Shown: positions 5,389 to 22,103, counted from the stretch's first letter. The stretch: DNA of 64,000 nucleotides from Burkholderiales bacterium (GCA_019635015.1 JAHCAG010000005.1:10810-74809); one strand, 5' to 3'. Made by a program: numbers and translations. The notes: generated by a model from the letters alone, not told the origin.

Positions 5389-5757
5389 TCAGTCGCGTTT
5401 CTTTTTCGCTTCGAGCTGCGCCTTCAGATCGGCGAAGGGATTGTGTGTCGCCGCCGGCAATTCCTTAGCGCTGTCGCTGCGTCCCGCCATGTCCTTGAGC
5501 TTGGAGTGTTCATGCTCATGGCAGTAAGTGCATAACAATTCCCAGTTGCTGCCGTCCGGCGGATTGTCTTCGTGATTGCCGTTCTTGTGATGGACTTCGA
5601 GCAGCTGCAGGTTGGCATGCGTGAAAGTGCGCGCGCAGCGCCCGCAAACCCAGGGATACATCTTGAGTGCCCGATCGCGGTAACCCGCAGCGCGGCGGTC
5701 AGCGTTGCGCCGCGCTTCGAGGATCACCTTGTCCAGGCGGTCATTGCTGGAGGTCAT
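5389..5757 (-). CDS. yajD: HNH nuclease YajD family
   Basis: 122 aa. YRDRALKMYPWVCGRCA ... VHHKNGNHEDNPPDGSNWELLCTYCHEHEHSK ... NPFADLK closely matches my recollection of E. coli YajD. Confidence 0.85.
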   Translation of the reverse strand: MTSSNDRLDKVILEARRNADRRAAGYRDRALKMYPWVCGRCARTFTHANLQLLEVHHKNGNHEDNPPDGSNWELLCTYCHEHEHSKLKDMAGRSDSAKELPAATHNPFADLKAQLEAKKKRD

Positions 5758-5806: not shown

Positions 5807-6229
5807 TCATCTTTTTTTTGCTGCGCGTATGGCGGCCGCAGCCCGACGCATCAGGCTCGGGTGCATTAGGCCGAGTTTGGGTGTCTGGCCGTGCGGTGCG
5901 CCGGGCGCTACTGCAAACCACAGCTCGTTGAAATCAAGTTCGAAGGTTTCCCCGAGATTAAATTTGGTCGGGTAGCTCAAGCCCGCAGCAGTGAACGCGG
6001 CGTCATCGACGGGGGTGATGGCGAATTCTCCAGCGTAGAGCTGATCCGTTTTCTGGCTGGTGCCGTAACACACCTCGACAACAGTGTGCCCTGCATGCTC
6101 GCCCACGCGCAGGACCAGCGCCGGACGCGGCTTGGGGCCGGGGCCGGGCAGGCCCCGCTGCGGGAACCGGCACCACACGATGTCGCCGACGCGCGGGGCG
6201 GCAAACCAGCGTGGCGCCGGTGATGCCAT
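5807..6229 (-). CDS. PemK/MazF-like type II toxin
   Basis: 140 aa. GDIVWCRFP...PKPRPALVL is the characteristic N-terminal MazF/PemK SH3-like signature. Its start overlaps the upstream ORF's stop by 1 nt (TGATG). Confidence 0.7.
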   Translation of the reverse strand: MASPAPRWFAAPRVGDIVWCRFPQRGLPGPGPKPRPALVLRVGEHAGHTVVEVCYGTSQKTDQLYAGEFAITPVDDAAFTAAGLSYPTKFNLGETFELDFNELWFAVAPGAPHGQTPKLGLMHPSLMRRAAAAIRAAKKR

Positions 6230-6549
6230 CAGAACAGGCTTTCTTTGACCGTCATGCGCCCCGAGGGCTGCATTTCGTGGATGGCTTCCTGTTGTTTCGC
6301 GGTGAGCGGGCCGGTATCCGCCTCATAACGCGGCAGGTTCTGCCGCGCGAAATGGGCGAGGGCGGCGTGGATGACCTGGGTTTCGGTGAGTCCCAGGGTT
6401 TTGGCGAGCTGGCTGGCGGTTTTTCGGGTGACACCGTACGGCGTGTCGGCATCGCGGTAGCGCAGCAGGATGCCCTCGGTGGCCGCTGGCTTGCCCCCCA
6501 AGGGGATTTCCTTCGCGGCGCGGCGGGATGCACTGGGTTTGTTGGGCAT
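6229..6549 (-). CDS. putative cognate antitoxin (RHH-like C-terminal region)
   Basis: 106 aa from ATG 6549 (MPNKPSAS...). TETQVIHAALAHFA resembles an RHH/CopG helix. Translationally coupled to the toxin. The tracked start at 6603 would read through the AT-rich operator repeats, so I prefer 6549. Confidence 0.5.
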   Translation of the reverse strand: MPNKPSASRRAAKEIPLGGKPAATEGILLRYRDADTPYGVTRKTASQLAKTLGLTETQVIHAALAHFARQNLPRYEADTGPLTAKQQEAIHEMQPSGRMTVKESLF

Positions 6550-6580
6550 GAGCGGGATTCCGGAGATGGGTTCAATTAAA

Positions 6581-6614
6581 GATATCATAATGATATCAAT
6601 CATTCAATGATATC
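6581..6614 (-). promoter_or_regulatory. three (T)GATATC(A) palindromic boxes upstream of the antitoxin-toxin operon (putative operator)
   Basis: GATATC at 6581-6586, 6592-6597 and 6609-6614, in an AT-rich patch immediately 5' of the minus-strand TA operon. Confidence 0.45.
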
Positions 6615-6693
6615 GGGGCCGGGCTCAATTGATTTTCATGAACTGCAGTCTGCCTCGAGGGAGGTGAGGCTATGCCGCGCCTTCGGCAAGACG
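6607..6693 (+). repeat. copy A of an imperfect ~90-nt direct repeat (partner at 8032-8128)
   Basis: Hand alignment: atgatat(c)gggg.cgg.gc.caatt.att.tca.ga...gcagtctgcc......aggtgaggc.atgc..cgcc...tcggc.aagacg is shared with copy B. Roughly three quarters identical, with short indels. Confidence 0.55.
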
Positions 6694-6932
6694 AACCTTT
6701 TGATTGCCGACCACCCGCTCTGTCAGGCGCTGGGAGTGGAGCGGTTCAAGGATGAAGTTGAAGCCGCTGTTGTGCGCTCGGTGCAGGCAGGTCGGGGCGA
6801 CGCAGTGCCAAAAGCGTCGGACCTCAAGTTCTGCGTTAAGAAGGGTAGTGGTATCGGTCGGACTTCAACGGCGCAGGCCAGGTGTGGCTGGCAGCGCCAT
6901 TCGCCATTTCAGCCATAATTGACTATACTGAT

Positions 6933-6944
6933 TGCCAATTGGCA
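6933..6944. promoter_or_regulatory. perfect 12-bp palindrome TGCCAATTGGCA just upstream of the Xre/ParS antitoxin gene (putative operator)
   Basis: tgccaattggca at 6933-6944, 11-17 nt upstream of the candidate start codons 6955/6961. TTGACT (6919-6924) lies just upstream. Confidence 0.35.
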
Positions 6945-6954
6945 GAAATAGAGA

Positions 6955-7419
6955 ATGATCATGGCAAATGTCGTGGTGAGTGCACCTGAATCGTTTCGCA
7001 ACATCGAGACCCTTCTTGGAGGACGAGGCGTGCTGCGCGCCACGCCGCGCTCAACGCAGGATTGGATCGGCGTAATCCGGCGCGGCATTCCGGCCGGTGC
7101 CGTCGAGGCATTGAAAAAAAACATCGAGGTGTCTCATGCCGAACTCGCGCGGGCACTGGGCATTCCGGAGCGGACTCTGGCGCGTCGTAAGCGCGAAGGC
7201 ATCCTGAGCAGCGATGAATCCGCCAAGCTTTGGCGCCTTGCACGGGCGGTAGGACGGGCCAATGAGGTGTTTGAGGATCCTGCAGCCGCGCTGCACTGGC
7301 TCAAGGCGCCCAATGCGGCCTTGTCGGGTGCCAGTCCATTGAGCATTATTGACACCGAGATCGGCGCCGAGAGCGTACTCGATACGCTGGGGCGCATCGA
7401 ACACGGGGTTTACGCCTAG
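6955..7419 (+). CDS. type II antitoxin, Xre-like with DUF2384 toxin-binding domain (ParS/MbcA family)
   Basis: 154 aa. HTH region SHAELARALGIPERTLARRKREG, then C-terminal LHWLKAPNAALSGASPLSIIDTEIGAESVLDTLGRIEHGVYA, typical of DUF2384. The start may be ATG 6961. Confidence 0.85.
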   Translation: MIMANVVVSAPESFRNIETLLGGRGVLRATPRSTQDWIGVIRRGIPAGAVEALKKNIEVSHAELARALGIPERTLARRKREGILSSDESAKLWRLARAVGRANEVFEDPAAALHWLKAPNAALSGASPLSIIDTEIGAESVLDTLGRIEHGVYA

Positions 7420-7427
7420 CCCGCCCG

Positions 7428-7889
7428 ATGCTGATCGTCTGGCGGGTGGTGACCGTACGTTTCGCAAAATCGGCGTTTTCCGGGGAGGGCGCGCGGTTGT
7501 ATGGCGGGCGCTGGAACCGCAAGGGCGTTCCACTGGTGTACACATCGGGCAGCCAGTCCCTGGCCATGCTGGAGATGTTGGTTCAGGACGAACCGTTGCG
7601 CGCACGTTACGTCATGATCGACGTGCGCATTCCCAAGGCAGTCACCATTGATCGCATCAGGGTCGATGACCTGCCTGCGGACTGGCGGGACGTCGCTGCC
7701 CGCGAAAAGCTTCAGATGATCGGTACGCAATGGGCTGTCAGGCAGGGTGCTGCGGTACTGGCCGTGCCGAGCGCCGTTGTCCCTTCAGAGACCAACTATC
7801 TGCTCAATCCGCTGCATCCGGATTTCCGCAAGATCAGGACTGGCCGGCCTCAAAAGGTGATGACTGATCCGCGGCTGCTCTTGACGTGA
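7428..7889 (+). CDS. RES-domain toxin (ParT/MbcT family, NAD+-targeting)
   Basis: 153 aa. GEGARLYGGRWNRKGVPLVYTSGSQSLAMLE and VPSAVVPSETNYLLNP carry the R-E-S signature residues. Sits 8 nt downstream of the Xre/DUF2384 gene. Confidence 0.85.
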   Translation: MLIVWRVVTVRFAKSAFSGEGARLYGGRWNRKGVPLVYTSGSQSLAMLEMLVQDEPLRARYVMIDVRIPKAVTIDRIRVDDLPADWRDVAAREKLQMIGTQWAVRQGAAVLAVPSAVVPSETNYLLNPLHPDFRKIRTGRPQKVMTDPRLLLT

Positions 7890-7891
7890 GC

Positions 7892-8035
7892 ATGAGAAAA
7901 CAGAATGGGCTTCTCCCGCTTTCCCGGACACATTTTTTCAAGGCTGAGGTGGTGCGACAGACGCTGACGCCCGGGATATCCACAGCACAGGTTGCGCAGG
8001 ATATGGGTCTACACAGCAACGTGCTGCGAGGATGA
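7892..8035 (+). pseudogene. remnant of an IS3-family transposase orfA (N-terminal HTH part only)
   Basis: My translation: MRKQNGLLPLSRTHFFKAEVVRQTLTPGISTAQVAQDMGLHSNVLRG*. The FKAEVV...G.S.AQVAQDMGLH.NVLR(K/R)W pattern is typical of IS3 OrfA. It stops after 47 codons, with no orfB or inverted repeats nearby. Confidence 0.5.
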
Positions 8036-8128
8036 TATGGGGACGGAGCCCAATTTATTCTCACGACAGCAGTCTGCCAGAGTGAGGTGAGGCAATGCTA
8101 CGCCGGGCGTCGTTCATCGGCGAAGACG
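8032..8128 (+). repeat. copy B of the imperfect ~90-nt direct repeat (partner at 6607-6693)
   Basis: See copy A. Copy B starts at the stop codon of the IS3 orfA remnant and carries an extra 11 nt (gggcgtcgttc). Confidence 0.55.
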
Positions 8129-8711
8129 CTAAGTCATTAACACTGGGGGTATTGCCGATTTTGTACGCTGGGATGCGGGCGTTCGTGATACTGGCGTGTG
8201 GCGTTCGCAAAATAACAAGACGGTCCGTCGTCTTCCGTCAATTTTATGGCACTCATGTCCGGGCAGCGGTGCCGAGTGGATTGAACATCTTAATCACATG
8301 TTTTTAAATGAATCTCCAGGGGGATGGCGGCGCATTCCTCATGGGATTCGCGGGTCAAACTTATCAATTTGGTAGATTTGACGATATCCCGATTCGCTTA
8401 CACCATCGAACAACAATAAACGGTCGATAGCGCAATGCTACGACCTTGCACAGGGGTGTGCGCATGCGGCAGTGGGGGGATTACTGCGGCAAGAAGAATG
8501 CCGGCCCGTTCTGGCGCCGGCTGGCGGGTTTTCTTTTTTCAAACGAATCGTTTCTCACGGAAATTGATTGTTTATTTCCACGGCGCTCTGTTGGCGACTG
8601 TGCGGGGCTGGGTGATCGATGCGTTTTTGTTCCGGGGGAATGTATGAATGTAAGACCTGCCCCCGATGTGTGTGCAGCATTATTGATGCGCAATTCGCCA
8701 CGGAGGCAGAT

Positions 8712-9311
8712 ATGGGTTTGGTAATTGCAGGCGCGCTCGCGCTTTATCTGCTGATAACAATCACGGTAGTCATCGGCGCAATCAGGTATGCGAAGAAAAA
8801 CGGCAAGAGTGCTAAGCGCTGGGGCTGTAGTGCTGCACTCGTCATGTACTTGATTCCGTTCTGGGACTGGATACCGACGATGGCAGTGCATCAGTATTCC
8901 TGCGCGACGGAAGCCGGGTTCTGGGTTTACAAGACGCCGGAGCAGTGGAAAAAAGAGAATCCGGGGGTGATGGAGACACTAATTAGTAACAGAGGGCAAG
9001 TTCGCAGTTTCTCCGGTGACAATGACAATTTTGTTCGTAAGAGTCTGATGAATCAACGTTTTGTTTACATCTCAAAACATAATGGCCCACTGTTCCTTAA
9101 TAGATGGCGATACGAACAACAAATTGTCGATAGTAAAACTGACGTTGTAATGGCTCGTAGCGTAGATTTCTCAACTTCGCATCAACGCCGTCAAGCTGGA
9201 TGGTCGGGTTGGAAATTTTGGTTAGACAGACAGCAATGTAATACATACGAAAATATAGATAGCGGATCACTTTCAACTATTGCGAAACAATTTGAGGGGG
9301 CTGAAAAGTGA
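8712..9311 (+). CDS. hypothetical 2-TM membrane protein with ~140-aa predicted periplasmic C-terminal domain
   Basis: ATG 8712 with GGAGG at 8702-8706. 199 aa: TM1 [23 protein letters not shown], basic loop [14 protein letters not shown]2 [20 protein letters not shown], Trp-rich soluble tail. Low GC. The stop overlaps the GTG start of the giant gene (GTGA, 9308-9311). Confidence 0.6.
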
Positions 9312-10210
9312 TCGACCTTCTAAAAGTTTTTCAACAAACGCAATTAGCTGAAGCGGCATACGCGAATTTTAGAGCAGTGGGTGGGGGAGTGATTTTCGAC
9401 AGAGATGGAATTATTGCCGCGCTTCAGGCTGAAAATTTCAGCGAATCCCAAGCCACTAACTTCGTCAACGAATGGGACGTAATCGACCATGTTCCTAACA
9501 CGGCCTTTGGCTTTTCGGCGACGATTTTCCGCAACCGGCAATCTGGCAATTACACATTAGCCATACGAGGCAGCAATGCTTCAAGCCTGGCGGACATTCT
9601 CAACGATATCAACATCATTGCGAGTGATGGGCTTGCTATTGCGCAATTAGTTAATCTCTACAACTTTTGGCAACGAGCTAATACTACACTTGACGCTGAA
9701 TACACTGCTGCTAAGGCAGTTGCGCAACTGGATGCAGGTAATGGAACGGTTTCCTACGCAATAAACTGGATTCCGTCCGCACAGCTCATTGATGCCAGTC
9801 TGCGGCAGGGTTCTGGCGCATTGACATCACCGCCTGCCATGCTGAATGTCACCGGCCACTCGCTCGGCGGTCATTTGGCGATGGCTTTTACCCGGTTGTT
9901 CCCTGATGTTCCTTCGACAGCACTCGTGGTCAACGCTCTGGGCTTCAAGCTTGGCACCCCCACTGTGGATTCTGTTTTTTCGCAGCTTGGGGGCGTGCCG
10001 GCATTTAACGCCTCGATAGTCACCAACATTTATGGCATTGCTGGTCCGGAGTTTGCTGCGATGAACAATGGAGTACTTCAGCAGCCCGGTGGTTATGAAG
10101 GTTTGTTTATCGAAAATGGTTCGATAAATCCGATTACCGGATTTCCGTCGCACAGCAGTGTTCAAATGACGGATAGCGCGGCCGTCTACGACCTTTTCAT
10201 TCGTCTATCC
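9308..10210 (+). other. lipase class-3 / family I.3-like catalytic domain of the giant protein
   Basis: aa 1-300: beta-strand-GHSLGG-helix motif at aa 183-188, preceded by the (A/S)IRGS strand motif typical of class 3 lipases. The DNA here is markedly lower in GC than the RTX part. Confidence 0.7.
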
Positions 10211-13200
10211 TCGCAAATCCGCAACAGCACTCCGACCGAAGCATTGGCAACGTTAAAGCCGCTGTTCGAAGCCAGCAGTGCCCAAGCCGACTCATCTCTA
10301 GAGCGCATCGTTGATGCGTTAGTCAATTTGCACGGACTGGACTTTGCTCCGCTGACTGCTGGCAAGATCGGTGATCGGGAGACGCTCTATGAGCGCATTG
10401 TGCCGCTTCAGGCGCTTGTTACGGGACTTTCCGACAACAACCCAGACGTACATGTGGATGTGCTGACCGCCACATCGGCTGAAAGCATGACCTTGCTGGC
10501 TTTGGATTCGACCGCGTTTGCCTACCGCTACGCCCTCAAAGAACTCAACCCTTTCGCCATCGTTGGAGACAATTCGCTTTACGCGATTCATAACCAGAAC
10601 GGTGAGCTCGATTTATATGATCCCATCGCTAAAACCGGCAATCTAACCAGCGATTGGATCGCCGACCGTGCAGAGTTTCTGGCCCGGAAGAACATGGCCA
10701 ATATTGCTGATGTGACGGCCATCATCAGTCCGGAGTTTGGCGTCGATAACCGCACGCAATTCAAGGATGTGGCGAGCGGTTATGCGCTTACGTTGTCGGA
10801 GGTCGGGTTGCCGGCACACAGCGTTTCAGCGCGACAGATCGCCTTTGGTTCGGATGCTTCCGATTTTCTGGAGGGCGGCTCCAAGTCAGACAAGCTCTAT
10901 GGCAATGCAGGCGCCGACTACCTGCGCGGCAAACTGGACAATGACCACCTCGAGGGCGGCCGTGGCATGGACGTCTACGAATACAACGGCCGCACGAGTC
11001 TGCTCAGCGCGTCCATGAATGACGGCAATGACACCCTCCTCGACACCGATGGCAAAGGCGTCCTGCGCTACGTTTTCAACGAAGGCGGTGTGGCGGGGAT
11101 TGGCGCTAAAAGCACCTCCACCATCATCCGCGACGTCAGCAACCGCGTCTCCGGCACGCAGTGGAACAGTGCAGACGGCAAATTCAGCTACCAGAGGGTG
11201 CAGAACGACCTGATTGTCACCATCACCGGAGATGCGGGTGGGCAGATTACCCTGAAGGATTTCAAGGAGGGGGATTTCGGCATTTACCTCCTTGATGAAC
11301 AGCGCGACCTTCCGGAGACCACGCGCGATATTTTGGGTGACAAGGGGTATGTCGAAAGCGCGGGGCAACGGACGCAACTGAAAGGGCCAGGCGGCGTGCC
11401 GCTGAAATATGGTGCCCCCGACTTTATCAGTCCTACGCTTTATCGGACCTATGAGCAGTTAGCGCTGGCCGAACCCATTCCGGCGGATTGGCACCACGCG
11501 CAACTATCCTCGCCCTATGTGCTTCACCACACGACGGTCAACGGTTCGGTCACGACCGAGTTCTACGCATTGCCGGTGACACTGGAATACCTGTATGTGG
11601 CCGAAGACGATCTGGGCAACCTGCAGCGCACGGCTGACGATCAGGCGGGTGAGGAGGATCGTCTTTACGACAGCGCGGGGAATGACCGGATCGCCTCGGG
11701 AAGCGGCAATGACCGGATTGACGCCTTTCGGGGCGGCGCTGATTTCATTTCCGCAGGGGTGGGGCGTGATGTGGTTATCGCCGGCGATGGGGATGACGTC
11801 ATAGAAGGCGGCGCCGATGGGATAGCGACCCTCGGCGGGGTGGTGACGGCAGGCGGCGACATGATCGCCGGCGGTGCCGGTAACGATGAAATTTATGGCA
11901 ACACGAGAATTGCCTTGTCGCTTGCCATTCAGCAGGGAGAGACGGCAACAGCCACCGATGCCATCGGAGATTTTCTGTCGGGTGGTGAAGGTAATGACTG
12001 GGTGGTGGGTGATGCTGGGAATGATTTTCTGGCTGGGGGTGATGGCGACGATATTCTGGTTGGCGGGGCAGGGCATGACAATCTGCTTGGGGATGACAAC
12101 CGCAAGGTGCAGGATGCGGGATGGAGCGTGGTGCGGCAGGTCAGTGGAGACGAGGTAAGCGGGCGCGTATATCGGATGGTTTTCAGTGGAACTGTGGAGG
12201 TTTCCGGCAGCGTCGAAGGGCGGGATGTCATCTACGGCGGCGCCGGGGGCGACTGGGCCTTTGCCGGTGGAGGTGATGATTTCATTGACGGTGGCAGCGG
12301 CGAGGATGTGCTGTTCGGCGGTGCTGGTTCCGATGTGGTGATCGGCGGTCTGCATAACGATGTGCTGATCGGTGACGGTGCAGAGGTGCCAGTTGAGCAT
12401 CATGGTGACGATTATCTTGATGGCGGTGAGGGCAACGACACGCTTTTCGGCGAGGGCGGCAACGACGTCCTGATCGGTGATGCTGGCCAGGATATCCTGC
12501 GCGGCGGAGACGGTAACGATATTCTGATTGGCGGCACGGGTGCCGATATCCTGATCGGAGGCGCTGGCAAGGATATTTACGTTTTCAATCGTGGCGACGG
12601 CACGGATACCATTTTTGATACTGCCGAAGCTGTCGGCAGTCCAGAGGCCAGCGTCATTGTGTTCGGCGAAGGTATCAGGAAAAGCGACGTCAAATTCGGC
12701 CCCGGCAGCCTGATGATCAATCTAGGCCCCTCCGACCCGGATGATCCGCTGGCAGGCAACGACCAGCTTCACTTCGAAAACTTCAATCACGATTATCCCG
12801 AGCTCACCGCCGCCATCGGCGAAATCCGTTTTGCCGACGGAACTTCGATGAGCTATGCCGATATCCTGGCGCAGGGCTTCGATATCGACGGCACGGCTTT
12901 GGACGACCTTGGTCCTGCCGCGCTGATCGGCAGTTCGATCACCGACCGCATTCGCGGCTTTGCCGGCAACGACGAACTGGAGGGCCGTGACGGCGACGAT
13001 GTGCTGATTGGTGATGGCGGATCGGACCGGCTGGATGGCGGCAATGGCAACGATGTGCTGGATGGTGGAGCCGGTAACGATTGGTTGGCCGGGGGAATGG
13101 GCAGCGACGATTACCGCTTTGTCAGTGGCGATGGCCTGGATACGCTGACGGAGGGTTCCCTGTTCGTGCGCGGACTGTCCGATCCGGTGCATGCGGACAG

Positions 13201-16200
13201 GATCATGTTCGGCGAGGGTGTGTCGCGGGAGCAGGTTTCCCTGTTGCGTTCGGCCGACGGCAATCTGAGCGTGCGGTATGGCGCGGGCGATGAAATCCTG
13301 ATCGAGGGGCAATACGGCACGGCGGGTGCGGATATCGAGCGCATCGTGTTTGCTGACGGGCAGACCATCGAAAAAGCCGAGCTTGATGCCCTGGAGATCG
13401 GGGTGCTGGAAGGCACCGGTGGCAATGATGAGTTGTACGGCACTGCGGGGAATGACGTTCTGCGGGGACATGAGGGTGACGATTATCTGGATGGCGGGCC
13501 GATACCCGAGCGCCGGGTGTCCGGTGGGACGCCAGTCACCGGCAACGACGTTCTGGAGGGTAGCGGCGGAGCAGATACCTATGCCCTGTATTGGGGCATG
13601 GGGGCAGACCGGATCATCGATATTGCCGACGGCGAAACCAACACGCTGCAGTTGCTGGACGGTGCGACTCTCGACAGCGTCAAGACTTCGCGCGATGGCG
13701 ACGATCTGCTGGTGACGATGCGCGGTTCGACTGATGGTGCGCGGATCGAGGGATTCTTTTCCGGGGGCGGTGCGGCTTCGTGGCAGATCGGCAGTGCTAC
13801 TGACGGCAACCGGCCCCTGCTGGAGCTTTACGTTGCGCAAAGCACGTCAACCAATGCGCATGCCGTTGAAGCGATGGAGGATTACAAGCAGCGCCTGCTG
13901 GGTGAATGGCGTGCCCGGGGGCAGTCTAATTTTGACCAGCCGACCCATGTTTATGTCAGATCGACCTGGTCGCAGACGATATCGGAGTGGACAAGACTGA
14001 TCCCGGCGTTACCAGAGCCCATCATTTATACGCAGACCATGGTCAACGACCCGGTGACCTATACGACGATAAACGGTTATGCGGTGCGACAGGGCGGCCG
14101 CTTTAACGCGCTTTCTCTGAACGGAAACTCGGCGTTTCAGCTTCATGTGGCACCGCTCATATTCAACCGGGAATCCGACGACAGCCGTATCGAGGTGGAA
14201 CAGTCTCCGGGTGGATCAACGGACTCGCAGTCTTACACCTATTTTGCAGGGATCAACGGGCCCTTCGACAACCAGCGCAGCTATTCGTACAGCAATGGTT
14301 TCATGGTCAACACCGTGACCGAGTCCAGTTACGAAGCGTGGATCCCGCTGTTTTTGCGTGAAGATGAGGAGGGTGATTTCAGCCTGAGTCATCACCAGAT
14401 CACCGAAAATCCGGTCATCGAGGAGATCGTTGCCGGCGCCGGAAACAATACGATTGTCGGAGCCTTGGGCAGCTCGGGCGACCACGTGGCCTTGATTGAT
14501 GCCGGTGCCGGGGATGATTCGATCGAGGCAGGGCAGTACGATTTTGTATTTGGCAATGAGGGTGACGACGAGATCTTCGGCGGCGCTTATGCCTATGGCG
14601 GCGATGGTAACGATACGTTGTCCGGCGGCCATTTTCTGTCCGGCGGAGCCGACGACGATGTGCTTGTTGGAGGGGAAGACGAGACCATTTTTCATTTCCG
14701 GGCCGACGAGGCGGGGCGGGACTGGGTCGAGGACAGAAATGGCATTTCGCTGAACGATTTTGCCGTTAAGGTGGGCCTTGTCGATTCTTACTCAAATCTG
14801 ATTTATGGCGGCAAGGTTCGTTACCTGAACAGTAATTTCTTGTATGAAGAGGCGTTCAGGAATTGGGTCGACAGGAATCCGTCATGGCCCGGTTTTTCTT
14901 ATGCAAACCTGGATCATGGCCTTCCCTACGAGGAAGCGCCGCAGGGCTACCATGTTTTGGGGAATTCCAGTGGATTTCCCCGGGGTGTTCCGGATAAATT
15001 GGCGAGGGGGTTGGCACCTGCCTGGGGGGATGGTTACTACACCTGGGTGTTCAATTCTGTCGAAGACATGATGCGGGATTTTGCAGATCTCGGTCTTGCA
15101 TTCAATCCTGCTGAAGTTCAAGTGATTCCCGGGGCGGCTGATCTGGCGGAATTCACGGCTGACAATCACGAGGCACTGAGACCGTTTTTTGATCAGGGCA
15201 TCCTGAAGAAAGATGTCGTGGAACTCGCAGGTTTCCGGCTGGAGACCGATGTTCTTGATGTCGGTTTTGTTCCGCCGGATGACACGGGCGACAGGCGGGC
15301 CCTGCGTCTGGTCTGGGGCGAAGATAAAGTCATCGAAGTTGAGCTGCCATCCGCGGATGATTTGATCGGGCATGGCGTCGAGACAATCAGTTTCGGAGGG
15401 GCTTCGTTCTACATTGGCGAGATGATCGAGTGGGCGGAGGAAACCGGAATTCTCGGAACACAGCTTGAGGATTACATCCAGGGCACGGACGCCAGCGATG
15501 TGATTCGCGGCATTGGTGGATGGGATTACATCAATGGCGGCGCCGGCGATGACATTCTGTCCGGCGGTACCGGTGCGGATACTTTTGCTTTCTTCGAAGG
15601 CGCCGGGACGGACACCATTCTCGATGGTGATGCCGAGGATGTCATTGAATTCGATGCCGGCATCACTTCCACGCAGTTGCGCCTGGGCCTGGGCTCTCTC
15701 CGCCTCGGTTATGGGGCGTCGGGCGACCAGATTCTGTTCGAGGGATTTGATCCGGACGACGTGCATGCCAACACCTTGTTCTCAGTGCTTCAGTTCTGGG
15801 ATGTCGAGGAGGTGGAACTGCCTGATGGCTCGCCTGATTTTGTCTGGACGCTGGTCGAAGAGCTGACATACGGACAAGTGCTGGAACGCGGTTTCGATCT
15901 TGTGGGAACCGCCGGGGATGATGTCCTGCGTGGCACCAATATCCACGATCGGTTCGAGGGCGGTGCCGGCAACGATTTGCTGACTGGCGGTTTCGGAAGC
16001 GACACCTATTTCTTCAGCGCTGGCGATGGCATTGACACGATCAACGACTTCTCGGAATCCGGGCAAATCAACCGGATTGTGCTGCGTGATCATCTGGAGG
16101 CTGACGTTGCCGGTGGCAGGGAAGGCGATTATGTGATCCTGCGTGTCGATGGATCCAGTGACGAGTTGCGGATCCGCTGGGATGACCCGACGGGCCTCGG

Positions 16201-19200
16201 TGTTGATGAGGTCGAGTTTGCCGACGGCGCGGTCTGGAACAGGGCTTATCTGGACAGTCTGGAGATTTCGGGCAATCTGCCGCCGGTGGTGGCGCTGCCG
16301 ATCGGGCCGGTCGCTTTCAACGAAGATGCAGCCTCGGGTTTTGTGGTTCCTGCCAACATATTCCAGGATCCGGATGCCGGCGATCTGCTGGGATATTCCG
16401 CTGCGCTGGCCGATGGCGGGGCGCTGCCGTCGTGGTTGTCGTTCGACCCGGAAACCCGGACCTTTTCCGGAACTCCTGCGAACGGCGATGTGGGCTCGTT
16501 CCAGATCCGGGTTACGGTGACCGACAGATATGGCGCTTCGGTATCCGACACCTTCAGCCTGTCGGTACTGAACACCAACGATGCCCCGGAGCTTGTGGCG
16601 GCACTGGCTGACCAGAGCGCCGTGCAGGGGCAGCCCTTCAGTTTTGCATTGCCCGCAGAAAGCTTTGCCGACGTGGATGGCGGTGATCTGCTGAATTACA
16701 CCGCGACCCTCGCCAATGGTGCGTCGTTGCCCGGGTGGCTGGTGTTCGAAGAGGCCACCCTGACATTCAGCGGCGTTCCCGGTAATGGTGATGTGGGTGC
16801 GCTGAAAGTCAGAGTGACGGCGACTGATGGTGACGGCGTATCGGTGTCCGATACCTTTGTGCTGCTCATCGCCAACGTCAACGACGCGCCGGAGTTGGCC
16901 ATTCCCTTGACGGATCAGGCGGTGACCGCGGGGGCGCTCTTCAGTTACGTGGTACCGGCCGACACCTTTGCCGATGCGGATGCCGGCGACAGCCTGAGCC
17001 TGAGCGCTCGGCTGGCTGATGGCAATGCCCTGCCCGGATGGCTCAGTTTTGATGCGGTAACAGGCACGTTCATCGGGACGTTCAGCGGCATACCGTCCGC
17101 ATCCAATGTGGGTGTGCTGGACGTGGAGGTCGTGGCGACCGACGACGGCGGCGCGACGGGAAGAGATTCATTCACGCTGACGGTCAATGCTGCGCCCGGA
17201 CTGGTGCTGACCGGTGCCGCCGGAGCCGATGTGCTTGAGGGTGGTTTCGGCAACGATTTGATCGACGGCCTTGCCGGCGCGGACCTGATGGCTGGCGGCG
17301 ATGGCGACGATACCTATGTGGTCGATCATGCGGGCGACGTAATTATCGAGCGCCCTGGTGAGGGACGCGACACGGTGCTGAGCAGCGTCAACTACATACT
17401 GCCTGATGAAGTCGAGAATCTGTGCCTCACCGGTGCCGCCAACCGCAATGCCACGGGCAATGCGCTCTCGAATGTCATCACCGGCAATGCGGGCGCCAAC
17501 CGGCTGGATGGCGGCGCGGGCGCCGATGTGCTGATTGGCGGACTGGGCAACGACATCTATATCGTCGATGACGCGCTGGATGCCGTGTTTGAGGCGGTGT
17601 CCGCCGGAACGGATACCGTGCTGTCGTCCGTCAGCCACGTGCTGTCGGCCAATGTCGAGCATTTGACCCTGACGGGTGAAGCCGTCATTGACGGCACGGG
17701 CAACGAACTGGCGAACACGATTACCGGCAACGCAGCCGCCAATATCCTGTGGGGCGGCATGGGCAGCGACCGGCTCATCGGTGGTGGTGGCATCGACACG
17801 CTGATCGGCGGCTTGGGCAATGATGTATATGTCATTGATTTTATTGATGATATTCTGGTCGAGTTTACGGGCGAAGGTACGGACACAGTGCAGGCGCCGT
17901 TTGACTACACCTTGCACGAACATTTCGAGAATCTCCTGCTGACCGGCGATGCGCTGGCAGGTATCGGCAACGCCGCGGCCAACCGGCTCACCGGCAATGC
18001 GCAGGCCAACGTGCTGTCCGGACTGGATGGCAACGACGTGCTGAACGGCGGCGGTGGCGCGGACATCCTTATCGGCGGCGCGGGAAACGATACCTATATC
18101 GTTGATGACGCGGCCGATGTGATCGTGGAACTGGCCGGTGAAGGGACGGATACCGTGCAAGCCGGCGTGACTTATACGATCGGCGAACACATCGAGCGAC
18201 TGGTGTTGACCGGCAATGCGGCAATCGACGGTACGGGCAATTCGCAGGACAACCGGCTCACCGGCAATGCTGCGGCGAACACGCTGCGTGGACTTGACGG
18301 CAACGACATCCTCGACGGCAAGGCGGGCGCCGACATCCTGATCGGCGGACTTGGCAACGACAGCTATATCATCGATCAGACCGATGATGTCGTCGTCGAG
18401 TTTTCTGGCGAGGGCATCGATACGGTTACTTCCAGCGTGGGTTATGTCTTGTCAGAGTATGTGGAAAACCTGATTTTGTCCGGAAGCGATGCTGTTGACG
18501 GAACAGGCAACGGGCTCGACAACCGGCTCACCGGCAACGCCGCGGACAACATGCTCTACGGACTGGACGGCAACGACGTCCTCGACGGCAAGGGTGGAGC
18601 GGATACCCTGATCGGCGGGGCGGGTGACGATGTGTATGTCATCGACAGCCTTGGGGATGTGGCCATCGAATACGCCGGGGAGGGCATCGACACCGTCCAG
18701 ACCACGCTGGCGTGGACGCTCGCTGATCACCTGGAAAACCTGTCCCTGACCGGGGCGGCAGCGATCGACGGTACCGGCAATGCCGCCGACAACATCATTG
18801 TCGGCAATGCCGGAGCCAATGTTCTGAGAGGACTTGATGGCAATGATCTGTTGGATGGCGGCACGGGTGCTGACACCCTGATTGGCGGTGCCGGTGATGA
18901 CCATTATGTCGTTGAACGGAGCACGGATGTGGTGGTTGAGGCCGCAGAAGAGGGTGTCGATACGGTTTACAGTCGTGTGACCTGGACACTGGGTGATCAT
19001 CTGGAGCATCTGGTGCTGACCGGCACGGCCAATACAGCGGGCACCGGCAATGCGCTCGACAACAGTATTTTCGGCAACACCGGCAACAACACGCTGGATG
19101 GCAGGGGCGGGGCTGACTTCATGGCCGGCGGGCTGGGTAACGACACTTATATGGTTGATGACGCCGGCGACGTTGTGTCTGAATCGGCAGGGGGCGGCAC

Positions 19201-20731
19201 CGATACCGTCAAGACCGCCATGACCCATGTCCTGCCGGTGCATGTGGAAAATCTGACACTGACCGGCACGGCGGCCGTCGATGCGACCGGCAACGCGCTC
19301 GACAACGTGCTGACGGGCAACAGTGGGGCGAATGTGCTAACCGGTCTGCAGGGCAACGACACGCTGGACGGCAAGGCCGGGGCGGATGTGATGCGTGGCG
19401 GCGAAGGTGACGATGTTTATGTAGTCGACAATTCGGGTGATGTCGTCATTGAACTGGCAGGTGAAGGAACGGATACCGTAAGGTCATCCCTGAACCATGT
19501 CCTCGGCGCTCATGTGGAGAACCTGGTGCTGACTGGCTCCGCGAATCGTAGCGGAACAGGCAACACGCAGAACAACGTCATTACAGGCAATAACGGTGCG
19601 AATATTATCGCCGGCCTGGAAGGTGACGATATTCTCGCCGGGGGACGGGGTAGTGATACCTACCGCTTCGATGCGGGCTTCGGGCGCGACGTCGTGGTTG
19701 AGGATGACGAGACGGCCGGCAACATCGATCGCATCCTTTTTGGCGCGGGGATTTCCTCGGCGCAGGTCGATTTGGGCCGGTATGGCGACGATCTGATCCT
19801 TCAGGCCGCGAACGGGCAGCACAGCGTGCAGGTTCTGAATTGGTTCGTCGCCGATGCGAACAAGATCGAGCTTGTCGAATTTGTCGATGGTACCGTCTGG
19901 GATGTGGCGACCATTGATTCTTTGGCCATGCAGAACGTTCAGATGCCCGGATTGTTGAGGGGTGGCAATGACGTGTCGATCTTGCTTGGGCAAATCGGCA
20001 ATACGGTTCTGGAGGGTGCGGACGGGGACGATGTGCTTGTCGATGACGACGGCAACAACGTGTTCTCCGGAGGTGCCGGCGATGATGCGGCGACAGGCGG
20101 GGAGGGTAACGATCTGTTCATCGGCGGCACGGGCAACGATACCCTGTTCACGGGGGCAGGAAGCAATCTGATCGCCTACAACGCCGGCGATGGAACCGAT
20201 ACGGTTTATTCAGAGGCCGGCTCCGGAAATGTGCTTTCCCTGGGTGGCGGACTGGCTTATTCGGATCTTTCGTTATCCCGGAACGACAATGACCTGATTC
20301 TGGGTACGGGAGGCGACGACAAGGTCATCTTCAAGGACTGGTATGTGGGCCGGAGCAATCTGCTTAACCTGCAGGTCATCCTCGATGCTTCGGAGGAATT
20401 TGACGAAAATTCGGCTGATCCGCTTCGCAACAGTCGTGTGCAGAATTTTGATTTTCTCGGACTTGTCGGTGCTTTTGACGCCGCGCATACCGCCAATCCT
20501 GGGTTGTCGAGTTGGGCGCTCGGCGATGCATTGACTCAATATCATCTTGCCGGATCCGGGGATGCCGCCATCGGCGGCGATCTGGCCTACTGGTATGCAC
20601 GAAACAACAGTCTGACCGGTATCAGTCTTGCTGCGGCTCAGGGGGTGATCGGTGCCAGTGGGTTCGGGTCAGAGGCGCAATCCCTGCGTCCTTTTTCCGG
20701 ACTGCAGGAAGGACTGATTCATCTGGGCTGA
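9308..20731 (+). CDS. giant (3807 aa) RTX calcium-binding repeat protein with N-terminal lipase (alpha/beta-hydrolase) domain; predicted type I secretion substrate
   Basis: Uninterrupted 11.4-kb ORF. N-terminal [23 protein letters not shown] ... [11 protein letters not shown] nucleophile elbow (Ser codon 9860-9862). Dozens of GGxGxDxL/I nonapeptides. Three cadherin-like/Ig-like modules. Nine composite repeats. Acidic, Cys-free, Gly/Asp-rich C-terminus without a signal peptide. HlyD gene 8 nt downstream. Confidence 0.9.
16270..17200 (+). repeat. 3 tandem ~100-aa cadherin-like / dystroglycan-type Ig-like modules (coding repeat)
   Basis: Three units of the pattern ...F.VPA..F.D.D.GD.L.Y.A.LA.G..LP.WL.F......F.G.P.N.DVG....V.V.ATD..G.S.SD.F.L.V.N.NDAPE. 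Confidence 0.7.
17210..19660 (+). repeat. 9 tandem composite RTX units of 81-90 aa (coding repeat)
   Basis: Unit pattern GND.Y.VDD..D.V.E...EG.DTV.S...Y.L...VE.L.LTG.A.IDGTGN...N.LTGN...N.L.GL.GND.L.G..GAD.LIGG. Units begin with [80 protein letters not shown] and [10 protein letters not shown]. Confidence 0.75.
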
Positions 20732-20738
20732 GATATCC

Positions 20739-22103
20739 ATGGCGTCCAACAGGACAGGTGTTTCTCCAAGGGATTTTTCCCCGCCGCTGTTGCGTATTCA
20801 GGATGGACCGCCGTCGCCGTTTGCGGGCTGGTTGCTCAGGGCGCTGCTGATCTTTTTCGGCTGTTTGCTGGCATGGGCCGCGTTTGGCCGGCTGGACATC
20901 GTTGCCGTTGCAACGGGCAAGCTGGTGCCCCAGTCCTATTTGCGTATCCTGCAGCCGGCGGAGCACGGCGTGGTCCGGGAAATCCTCGTGCGGGAGGGAG
21001 AGCGTGTCGAAGAAGGGCAGGTTCTCATGCGTATGGATCCCCGCATGCTGGAGGCCGATTGGCGGGTTGTTGAAGGCGAACTTGCGCTCAAGCGGCTGCA
21101 GATCAGGCGCATTGACGCGGAAATTGCAGGCGCCGCCCTGATCGGCGCACCGGGCGATGACGCCGGCTTGCTGGCCCAGGTGAGCGCGCAGTTGCGCGCG
21201 AGACGCCAGGCGCATCTGGATGCGATTGACCTGGAGCGGGCTTTGCTGCTCAAGGCGCAGCGTGACTTGCAGGCAGCGCGGGAAGTGGAGTCGAAGTTGA
21301 AACAGACTGTTCCGATGTACAAGGAAACGGCGGACGGCTGGGCTGATCTGGCGAAGCAGGGGTTCGCGGGGAAGTTGATGGCGCAGGAGCGCATGCGCCA
21401 GTACATCGAAAGCGCGCAGGACCTCAAGGCGCAAAGCGAGAGTGTGGCCAGCCTGCAGGCGACCATCGTGCAGGCGGAGAAACGCCTGTCGCAGATCCAG
21501 TCAAACCACCGGCAGCAACTTCAGGGCGAGCGCATCGAAATTGCCGCAGGAGTGCGTCGCCTGGAGGAAGAACTGGGCAAGCATCAGCACCGCAAGGGCT
21601 TGATGGAACTGCGCGCCCCTCAGGCCGGGATCGTGAAGGACCTGGCGACGCACACGGTGGGCACAGTGGCGGCCCCGGGTACCATCCTGATGACGCTGGT
21701 GCCGGTCAGCGAGCCGCTGGTGGCGGAGGTGTGGGTAAACAACGACGATGTGGGTTTTGTCCGGAAAGGGCAACCTGTCAAACTCAAACTGGCTACCTTC
21801 CAGTTCCAGAAATACGGAATGATCGAAGGTAACGTCAGGCAGGTCAGCGCCGATGCCAGCGAAAATCAGGGCAGCGGACCTGCGCCTGGCGTGGAGATCG
21901 GCAGGAACAGATCGGCGTTGCCGCTGGCTTACAAGGCCATTGTGGAGATGGGCTCCCAGGAACTCGTCAACGGGCAGGCGGCCTATTCACTGGTGCCCGG
22001 CATGCAGGTCGCCGCGGAAATCCATCTGGGGACACGTACGGTGCTGGAATATCTGTTTTCTCCGGTAAGTAGGGCTTTTCATGAGGCCGGGCGGGAGCGT
22101 TGA
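20739..22103 (+). CDS. HlyD-family type I secretion periplasmic adaptor (membrane fusion protein)
   Basis: 454 aa. N-terminal TM (LLRALLIFFGCLLAWAAF), then GRLDIVAVATGKLVP...LRILQPAEHGVVREILVREGERVEEGQVLMRMD, long coiled-coil, C-terminal beta-barrel region ending TRTVLEYLFSP, typical of the HlyD family. Confidence 0.9.
   Translation: MASNRTGVSPRDFSPPLLRIQDGPPSPFAGWLLRALLIFFGCLLAWAAFGRLDIVAVATGKLVPQSYLRILQPAEHGVVREILVREGERVEEGQVLMRMDPRMLEADWRVVEGELALKRLQIRRIDAEIAGAALIGAPGDDAGLLAQVSAQLRARRQAHLDAIDLERALLLKAQRDLQAAREVESKLKQTVPMYKETADGWADLAKQGFAGKLMAQERMRQYIESAQDLKAQSESVASLQATIVQAEKRLSQIQSNHRQQLQGERIEIAAGVRRLEEELGKHQHRKGLMELRAPQAGIVKDLATHTVGTVAAPGTILMTLVPVSEPLVAEVWVNNDDVGFVRKGQPVKLKLATFQFQKYGMIEGNVRQVSADASENQGSGPAPGVEIGRNRSALPLAYKAIVEMGSQELVNGQAAYSLVPGMQVAAEIHLGTRTVLEYLFSPVSRAFHEAGRER

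Follow-up and report, generated by a model that had tools for sequence, protein, structure and literature searches.

Periplasmic Inh and AprI are established inhibitors of the RTX proteases exported by type 1 secretion systems (T1SS), binding their targets 1:1 and being encoded in the same T1SS cluster (PMC3034196). Here we describe a locus with a comparable layout in a 64,000-nucleotide stretch of DNA, referred to below as the window, from a Burkholderiales bacterium (GCA_019635015.1, JAHCAG010000005.1:10810-74809). In it, a gene for a 199-residue membrane protein (the partner) overlaps the start of a gene for a 3807-residue RTX protein (the giant protein) which begins with a lipase-like domain (the head). 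As in the serralysin-Inh systems (AprA-AprI, PrtA/B/C-Inh and PrtSM-SmaPI), a T1SS RTX hydrolase lies beside the gene of a small, putatively periplasmic binder. The window pair differs from these systems in that the partner has no similarity to Inh (no Pfam match at E<=10 and no PDB match) and is membrane-anchored rather than soluble, that the enzyme is a lipase-like serine hydrolase, and that the pair is polymorphic and occurs in arrays and with orphan partners. To our knowledge, neither polymorphism nor arrays nor orphans have been described for Inh.

Related loci were collected by scanning one genome per species for the partner, which gave 80 loci; one more (L081) was reached via the partner homologue P0002, making 81. 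The module they share resembles the type 6 secretion system (T6SS) Tle1-4/Tli pairs, in which a GxSxG alpha/beta-hydrolase lipase is encoded beside a periplasm-facing, often lipoprotein, cognate protein and extra or orphan immunity genes are common. It differs in its T1SS and RTX context, in a partner that is upstream, translationally coupled and from an unannotated family, and in its variable gene junction. No T6SS genes were noticed in the 80 loci, in which no systematic search for them was made; the recurrent neighbours were T1SS ATP-binding cassette (ABC) transporter, HlyD and IS200-like transposase genes. Lipase-like Tox-ABhydrolase domains are recognised toxin modules (PMC3482391).

Interbacterial polymorphic toxins are defined by the diversity of their C-terminal toxin domains and are known, with C-terminal cassettes, for the type 5, type 6 and type 7 secretion systems and others (PMC3482391). 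With CdiA-CT/CdiI and Rhs systems the window module shares a sharp variable cassette, an adjacent cognate gene, arrays of displaced fragments and conserved flanking motifs. Its layout is however mirrored, with the variable end N-terminal, the partner upstream and the fragments on the 5' side, and the swap involves only ~53 residues of a large protein whose catalytic domain is conserved. Two groups of T1SS substrates are also similar. Family I.3 lipases (Pseudomonas TliA/PML, Serratia LipA) have an N-terminal GHSLGG motif, C-terminal RTX repeats, no signal peptide and almost no Cys, whilst the window head is nearest to fungal class-3 lipases among the matches listed and sits on proteins of up to >3800 aa; we know of no dedicated partner gene for a family I.3 lipase. 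LapA-type adhesins are giant RTX proteins with Ig-like repeats and a folded N-terminal domain which is exported last and could stay at the envelope. The window protein differs in that its N-terminal domain is an enzyme fold, that no LapG or LapD gene was seen nearby, and that the head is also found on proteins of ~500-800 aa.

Topical full-text searches of the literature turned up no account of such a module, in which a lipase exported by T1SS follows a partner gene. The gene anatomy, the fold of the head, its linkage to the partner, the T1SS surroundings, the cassette swap, the arrays and the orphans are shown below. We give an even chance to the proposal that the partner is a cognate, allele-specific inhibitor or immunity protein which faces the periplasm and acts on a lipase-like effector exported by T1SS, laid out as the mirror image of a polymorphic toxin. 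For this proposal we infer periplasmic orientation, physical binding, lipolytic activity, toxicity and protection.

Partner and head form a conserved, coupled unit

The module is made up of the following features.

8712..9311, + strand: partner gene, 199 aa (ORF list, translation and raw sequence)
8712..8980, + strand: constant part of the partner, aa 1-90, with a transmembrane (TM) hairpin and a juxtamembrane motif of 30 residues (conservation 0.67-0.75 for aa 41-90)
8981..9466, + strand: polymorphic junction cassette, partner aa 91-199 and giant protein aa 1-53 (GC trough of 0.42; L081 versus L011)
9308..20731, + strand: giant RTX protein gene, 3807 aa (open reading frame (ORF) calls, Pfam)
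9308..10717, + strand: head, ~aa 1-470, modelled as a class-3-lipase-like alpha/beta-hydrolase core (to ~aa 283) and a helical extension (AlphaFold2 (AF2), Foldseek)

The partner gene starts with ATG at 8712, with GGAGG 6 nt before it, and its homologues share the MGLVI start. Its TGA stop codon (9309-9311) and the GTG start of the giant gene (9308, within AAGTGA) overlap by 4 nt (GTGA), and GAGGGGG lies 9-15 nt ahead of the GTG. When the 81 related loci were mapped with hidden Markov models (HMMs), a window-type partner gene was found directly upstream of 65 of the 78 head starts, mostly with a 4-nt overlap, which is kept across Beta-, Gamma- and Zetaproteobacteria and Desulfuromonadales. The pairing goes far beyond chance, confirming the upstream gene as the true, conserved and translationally coupled partner that a first-pass annotation of this DNA had proposed. 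Proteins encoded 3' of the partner range from ~500 aa to >3300 aa, and head and partner are the same even for short, repeat-poor forms of ~500-800 aa. Head and partner are thus the constant unit, and the RTX body is the part that varies in length. The module is common in Betaproteobacteria of environmental importance, among them Rhodocyclales, Gallionella, Thiobacillus and Methylophilaceae.

Heads that lack a window-type partner have other, remotely related upstream proteins with one or two TM helices or a lipobox. One of these, the 'type C' partner, is an unannotated ~190-aa two-TM family with 627 clusters at 90% identity; others are larger two-TM forms, or lipoprotein forms with canonical lipoboxes (L069, L021). 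Remote partner types go with remote head types. Partner-head pairs are also found in tandem (L017, L022 from the culturable Sulfurisoma sediminicola BSN1, L026, L031, L049, L060, L061 and L069), and within a locus the partners of paralogous pairs have diverged further than the heads, with partner versus head identities of 49 versus 67%, 31 versus 53%, 18 versus 43% and 24 versus 42%.

Displaced and orphan units, as known from polymorphic toxins, are present as well. Arrays of partner genes, each with a 5' head fragment, lie ahead of a full-length gene in L017, L021, L031, L047 and L069, and intact orphan partners stand among housekeeping genes in L005, L008, L015, L029, L037, L041 and L046. 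In several loci an intact partner remains beside a truncated or transposase-disrupted head; in the complete genome of Desulfopila sp. IMCC35008 (L030), it is followed by a 215-aa head fragment and then by an IS200-like transposase gene. Overall, ~35 of the 80 loci hold an intact or possibly intact head, ~13 a truncated one and ~16 no head nearby, the rest ending at a contig edge.

The loci without a head, two of which place the small gene beside lolCD-like genes, could be taken to mean that adjacency is meaningless and that the partner is a housekeeping membrane protein merely sharing an operon or mobile island with RTX genes. We regard this as close to refuted, given the retention of the 4-nt overlap across such distant groups, the joint duplication of partner and head, the co-variation of the partner C-half with the head N-terminus described below, and the matching of remote partner types to remote head types.

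The lolCD-like genes, which encode ABC proteins of the lipoprotein release type, adjoin the orphan partners of L008 (-3490 to -1570, counted from the partner) and L046 (+748 to +2771). This may be plain synteny or may hint at a link to envelope lipid or lipoprotein traffic. IS200-like Y1 (RAYT-type) transposases of ~244 aa recur right after the partner or inside disrupted heads (L013, L016, L021, L024, L030, L035, L038, L043, L050, L066 and L076; for example L030 11362-12168 and L021 13186-13920), and L050 has four or five copies. Their distribution suggests an insertion hot spot or a target resembling repetitive extragenic palindromes (REP-like) at the 5' ends of head genes.

A polymorphic cassette spans the gene junction

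The loci L081 and L011, which come from different samples, share 97-100% nucleotide identity over ~12 kb except in one sharp-edged patch. This patch (L081 1680-2165, ~490 nt) is only ~55% identical and covers partner codons ~91-199 and giant codons 1 to ~53. The same pattern of a sharp-edged variable cassette with its adjacent cognate gene was found in three further pairs, that is in four of the five closest pairs, with L055/L057 showing no swap. Identities in the five pairs were as follows.

Pair: partner N-half; partner C-half; head aa 1-55; head core
L011/L081: 0.94; 0.38; 0.48; 0.99
L017 tandem copies: 0.91; 0.27; 0.65; 0.98
L063/L056: 0.95; 0.53; 0.52; 0.88
L009/L032: 0.80; 0.31; 0.58; 0.78
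L055/L057: 0.89; 0.94; 0.85; 0.87

The same boundary appears in family-wide column conservation, which is 0.67-0.75 for partner aa 41-90 and 0.15-0.48 for aa 91-199, and in the head falls from 0.73 (aa 11-20) to 0.15 (aa 21-30). The variable region is flanked by conserved motifs, which are ENPGV on the partner side and, on the head side, QLAEAAYA and W.V.DH.PNT.SGFSAT. The window itself carries the L081-type allele (partner 82% identity, head aa 1-100 86%). Compared with L011, its synonymous sites are saturated within the patch (proportion of synonymous differences, pS, 0.78; ~0.4 elsewhere), which argues for allelic replacement rather than selection alone. Positive selection as the only cause of the divergent patch was rejected on the same ground.

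These results change what is thought to be exchanged. The first-pass annotation had taken the lipase head together with its immunity gene as the exchangeable unit; instead it is the partner C-half and ~53 head codons, and the core is 99% identical across the swap. Its view of the locus as a mirror-image polymorphic toxin is supported by the sharp junction cassette and by the arrays of partner and 5' head fragments, though not as regards exchange of the whole head. The arrangement of a variable C-terminal toxin followed by a downstream immunity gene is reversed here, the variable part being N-terminal and the partner upstream. The low GC of the head and partner block had also been read as a sign of module exchange. 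A GC dip was seen in 13 of the 13 relatives examined and is a family trait, so recent exchange was rejected as its explanation. We also discarded the argument that the partner, being more conserved than the head, could not be an immunity protein, since this is an averaging artefact: the N-half of the partner is conserved, while no other segment of the operon varies as much as the C-half.

In a comparison of 47 pairs, which are not all independent of one another, divergence in the partner C-half followed that in head aa 1-58 (Spearman 0.44, partial r 0.42) and showed no relation to that in the catalytic core (Spearman 0.09, partial r 0.04). The partner C-half and head aa 1-58 are adjacent DNA. 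The co-variation agrees with an interface between partner and head, of which it is no proof.

The head resembles class-3 lipases

The conserved residues of the head lie at the following positions.

Giant protein aa 83-88: LAIRGS
9854-9871, + strand: GHSLGG, with the Ser185 codon TCG at 9860-9862
10112-10114, + strand: Glu269
10151-10153, + strand: His282
10172-10174, + strand: Asp289

In an alignment of 43 homologues Ser185, Glu269 and His282 were invariant and Asp289 nearly so; the catalytic acid is probably Glu269 or Asp289. An AF2 model built on this alignment was confident (pLDDT 90.6, pTM 0.91). Its fold is that of class-3 lipases, including the Ser nucleophile elbow and the catalytic His. 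Foldseek against the PDB returned Yarrowia Lip2 as its best match (3o0d, E 1e-5), followed by 3ngm, 1usw, 6a0w and 1tgl, which include Rhizomucor lipase and feruloyl esterase A. The top matches had a probability of 1.0 and a TM-score (target) of 0.40-0.50. By sequence the relationship is distant. Pfam Lipase_3 (PF01764) scored 14.9 bits against a threshold of 22 and covered aa 176-195, the nucleophile elbow, only, and a PDB sequence search with the head gave elbow-level matches alone (E ~0.4, unrelated hydrolases). The lipase assignment therefore rests on the fold and not on Pfam, and the model points to a distant, active-looking class-3-lipase-like serine hydrolase with a helical extension.

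The N-terminal alpha/beta-hydrolase lipase domain read from the sequence in the first-pass annotation is thus borne out in its fold, the AIRGS strand, GHSLGG and Ser185, but falls below the Pfam threshold and does not belong to family I.3. Family I.3 membership was rejected as no solved lipase chain is detectably related to the head by sequence and the 50 Foldseek matches listed include no bacterial RTX lipase.

The head has two further divergent segments. Giant protein aa 101-200 (9608-9907) and aa 301-400 (10208-10507) are 60-63% identical to both L081 and L011, compared with 79-90% for the neighbouring segments, and their synonymous sites are saturated against L011. They are hypervariable surface regions separate from the junction cassette; the first may form a lid or hairpin at aa 133-156, and the second belongs to the helical extension. 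PF26363 is a precomputed annotation on many head homologues (P0139, P0147, P0150, P0162 and others) and gave no match on the window head; a local Pfam scan was silent on P0162, P0139, P0187 and P0193, which carry that annotation, and no mention of PF26363 was found in the literature searched. In the plasmid collection searched, the only relatives of the head are distant (23-35% identity), being Mbeg1-like or alpha/beta hydrolase genes on Campylobacter jejuni/coli plasmids; Helicobacter plasmids and unannotated stretches of Ralstonia solanacearum megaplasmids were also among the distant matches.

The partner is probably a periplasm-facing membrane protein

The partner consists of a TM hairpin (aa 2-24 and 37-59) with a basic 12-residue loop and a Trp-rich domain of ~140 aa, and contains Cys64 and Cys176. 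Searches of Pfam, NCBIfam and the PDB gave no relative for it, whether relaxed to E<=10 or made with a profile. Its family nevertheless numbers 1259 homologues when clustered at 90%, or 581 clusters at 50% identity, all of them stand-alone proteins of ~190-260 aa named 'hypothetical', and none was found on any plasmid in the plasmid collection searched. When 16 divergent partners were aligned, only the two Cys (window numbering) were invariant, a nearby Gly being nearly so, and the anchor varied between a two-TM hairpin, a single TM helix and a lipoprotein signal. The lipoprotein forms of L069 (lipobox 'LAISGC') are weakly linked to the family (HMM E 4e-8 and 6e-6 at profile positions 50-78, in a small ORF database), and that of L021 (lipobox 'VLAAC') had no HMM match, being tied to it by motif and alignment alone.

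The exchange of anchors, the conserved Cys pair and the basic loop between the helices together indicate that the C-terminal domain very probably faces the periplasm. This is the orientation given in the first-pass annotation, and lipobox-anchored relatives and the two invariant Cys now favour it in addition to the basic loop. The description of a two-TM ORF overlapping the giant gene holds for the GTGA overlap (9308-9311) and for TM1, which is strongly hydrophobic. TM2 (aa 37-59) is only moderately hydrophobic, with a hand-calculated Kyte-Doolittle mean of ~1.4, under the cut-off of 1.5 of the 19-residue scan. An AF2 model from 27 sequences (pLDDT 58) was confident for the helices and weak for the C-terminal domain, which was beta-rich at low confidence; Foldseek on this low-confidence model gave nothing meaningful.

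A membrane-anchored, periplasm-facing protein encoded with a lipase recalls the Lif foldases of family I.1/I.2 lipases, which have both of these properties. The partner could accordingly be a dedicated folding or secretion helper, a Lif-like foldase or an activator for maturation or release of the head; the tight operon coupling, the presence of one partner per head and their co-duplication in tandem arrays would all suit such a role. It has, however, no similarity to Lif/Lipase_chap or to any Pfam family at E<=10, its low-confidence model is beta-rich rather than a helical Lif scaffold, and Foldseek on that model was empty. Orphan partners, partners beside destroyed heads and strain-level diversification are all unexpected for a helper. 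Lif moreover serves lipases of the Sec/type 2 secretion route, whose folding is periplasmic; lipases exported by T1SS fold extracellularly (PMC3034196). We consider this explanation improbable.

The RTX body and its secretion

Downstream of the head, the giant gene and its 3' neighbour are organised as follows.

10808..16282, + strand: RTX beta-roll blocks, HCBP_related modules and unassigned middle regions (PF00353, PF06594)
16283..17188, + strand: three tandem He_PIG (Ig/cadherin-like) domains, ~aa 2326-2627 (PF05345, scoring 125 bits over two copies and 69.5 bits over the other)
17189..20140, + strand: long RTX repeat array (PF00353, 19 stretches, 245 bits)
20141..20731, + strand: C-terminal non-RTX acidic region, ~196 aa, presumed to contain the uncleaved T1SS signal (last 150 aa with a pI of 4.4)
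20739..22103, + strand: gene for a HlyD-family T1SS membrane-fusion protein (TIGR01843, 314.9 bits against a cut-off of 208.65; Pfam HlyD_3)

The giant protein has an isoelectric point (pI) of 4.05, a single Cys and 39 GGxGxD motifs, the last at aa 3606. Pfam identified RTX repeats, HCBP_related modules and the three He_PIG domains, with PF00353 scoring 225, 54 and 245 bits on three segments. Over 3343 aa the protein shares 80% identity with its L011 counterpart, and the L081 orthologue has 3811 aa. Its N-terminus is hydrophilic, without a hydrophobic stretch, and tandem GGxGxD repeats lie near the C-terminus as in other RTX substrates of T1SS. The ~196-aa C-terminal region is a candidate for the secretion signal. 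The HlyD gene begins 8 nt past the giant gene and is followed by an NnrU gene; HlyD is also found 3' of the giant gene in the closest relatives L009, L012 and L032. The substrate layout recognised in the first-pass annotation, with no N-terminal hydrophobic stretch, RTX blocks and an acidic tail, thus stands, with HlyD adjoining. An exporter query over the whole window returned no T1SS ABC transporter, which places the ABC exporter gene outside the window, either on the remainder of the 146-kb contig or in another part of the genome. In L023, L031, L054, L056, L059, L073, L075 and L079 the T1SS ABC and HlyD genes lie directly 5' of the partner, and in other related loci 3' of the RTX gene.

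T1SS exports its substrates C-terminus first (PMC3034196), so the N-terminal head would be last out and would lie nearest the producer, not at a distal tip. The earlier idea that the adhesin-like RTX scaffold could present the lipase on the cell surface needs correcting on this point.

Export polarity is also the starting point for another view of the partner. Together with retention of the LapA type, it keeps an N-terminus nearest the producer's envelope, where the partner could capture that of the giant protein. Docking or self-recognition would then be allele-specific without toxicity, the partner acting as a tether (LapA-type) or as an identity determinant like Proteus IdsD-IdsE, and the lipase fold would serve surface or lipid remodelling and not killing. 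Several features suit this view. In the giant protein it is the first ~53 residues that vary, not the catalytic core; its body is adhesin-like, with He_PIG domains and RTX repeats; the partner's TM and juxtamembrane half, which is strongly conserved, could be in contact with the export machinery; and orthogonal tethers would make sense where several pairs share one T1SS locus. Yet a plain tether would not account for cassettes that differ between strains within operons which are otherwise 97-100% identical, for intact orphan partners far from heads, or for partners kept beside decayed heads. The few-repeat forms of ~500-800 aa, which have the same head and partner, are not adhesins, and lipoprotein-anchored variants suit a soluble binder better than a component of the machinery. 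No LapG/LapD-like genes were seen near the window genes scanned. On balance we think docking without toxicity unlikely.

A possible role in allele-specific inhibition

If the partner is instead an inhibitor of a lipase-like effector, the module might work as follows. The small gene would be translated first and the giant gene would be translationally coupled to it, the two forming one conserved module. The partner would be anchored in the inner membrane with its C-terminal domain, disulfide-bonded, in the periplasm, and this domain would bind its own cognate head in an allele-specific manner. Contact would most likely be made between the variable C-half of the partner and the variable segment of the head at ~aa 21-54. 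The most likely purpose would be inhibition, the partner neutralising lipase at its own envelope that had leaked, been retained at the secretion end or come from siblings. Because strains differ in the junction cassette they carry, protection would be strain-specific.

A broader proposal is that the locus belongs to a widespread T1SS polymorphic effector-immunity or kin-recognition system, the mirror of contact-dependent inhibition (CDI) and Rhs systems, in which a specificity cassette at the 5' junction is exchanged by recombination between conserved motifs and displaced cassettes pile up upstream. The cassette would comprise the partner's C-terminal domain and the first ~50 head residues, and the export signal would lie at the C-terminus of a conserved RTX body. 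We advance this tentatively, at somewhat less than even chances.

A number of points weigh against inhibition as the function. We know of no route by which a secreted RTX lipase would enter the periplasm of another cell. The swapped cassette holds only ~53 head residues and no part of the catalytic core, unlike classical exchange of toxin domains. The partner 3' half and the head 5' end are contiguous, and their co-swapping and co-variation could reflect linkage alone. If the moderately hydrophobic TM2 does not span the membrane, the domain would be cytoplasmic. W51, D52, P55, T56 and H60 are invariant, and the unusual conservation of the TM and juxtamembrane half hints at a role beyond anchoring. 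Neither the partner model (pLDDT 58) nor sequence and profile searches matched a known inhibitor or immunity fold. Many of the loci come from metagenome-assembled genomes, where some truncations may be assembly errors. Finally, on the current view T1SS substrates pass through the envelope with no intermediate stage in the periplasm (PMC3034196). As places where head and partner might meet there remain leakage (the role proposed for Inh), retention of the folded head at the secretion end, and entry into neighbouring cells.

Were the mirror-image system real, T1SS-exported lipases would encounter the inner membrane from its periplasmic side, whether in the producer or its neighbours, raising the question of whether and where T1SS cargo meets the periplasm. 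T1SS is generally regarded as a single-step pathway for exoenzymes, adhesins and toxins aimed at hosts. The system would add it as a secretion route, and an N-terminal and upstream architecture, to the catalogue of polymorphic toxins. It would also give a function to two 'hypothetical' families, the window-type partner and the second, type C, partner. The natural L081/L011 allele pair offers a ready-made comparison of specificity.

Other heads with other upstream genes

The survey of relatives for alternative heads paired with different upstream genes, as called for in the first-pass annotation, yielded two cases. L019 (10838-17420) holds two tandem pairs, each of a 230-257-aa signal-peptide protein and an RTX protein of ~796 aa, downstream of a T1SS ABC gene and an orphan window-type partner. 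The one RTX head scanned matched Pfam Lipase_3 above threshold (27.7 bits); it is Mbeg1-like and differs from the window head. In L030 (14468-20596), a 195-aa signal-peptide protein with no Pfam match precedes an RTX giant of >1837 aa with an M10 (serralysin/matrixin) head. These two genes adjoin the partner-lipase pair of that locus and, by analogy with the serralysins, may be a giant-protein version of the protease-Inh arrangement. As the L019 and L030 pairs illustrate, the layout of a small periplasmic protein followed by a T1SS hydrolase recurs with unrelated parts.

Upstream genes and leader

The region 5' of the partner gene contains the following.

5389-5757, - strand: HNH endonuclease gene
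5807-6229, - strand: MazF/PemK-like toxin gene
6955-7419: Xre-family antitoxin gene
7428-7889: RES-domain toxin gene
about 7890-8040: insertion sequence (IS) 3-type OrfA remnant
8192..8711, + strand: untranslated, conserved leader 5' of the partner gene (76-79% identity to the matching regions in L011 and L081)

In L081 only ~620 bp separate the HNH gene from the partner gene downstream of it, and the block of toxin-antitoxin and IS sequences is missing. This block (5807-8040) is thus a lineage-specific insertion between the HNH gene and the leader. The IS3 remnant had been cited as evidence of module exchange; it and the toxin-antitoxin genes are an unrelated upstream insertion, and the remnant was rejected as a module boundary.

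Rfam and promoter scans of the leader (8192..8711) gave no Rfam match and no sigma-70 consensus. Within it, ~170 nt before the partner start codon, lies a terminator-like GC-rich hairpin followed by a T-run (~8498-8545), which could be an attenuator or the end of a preceding unit.

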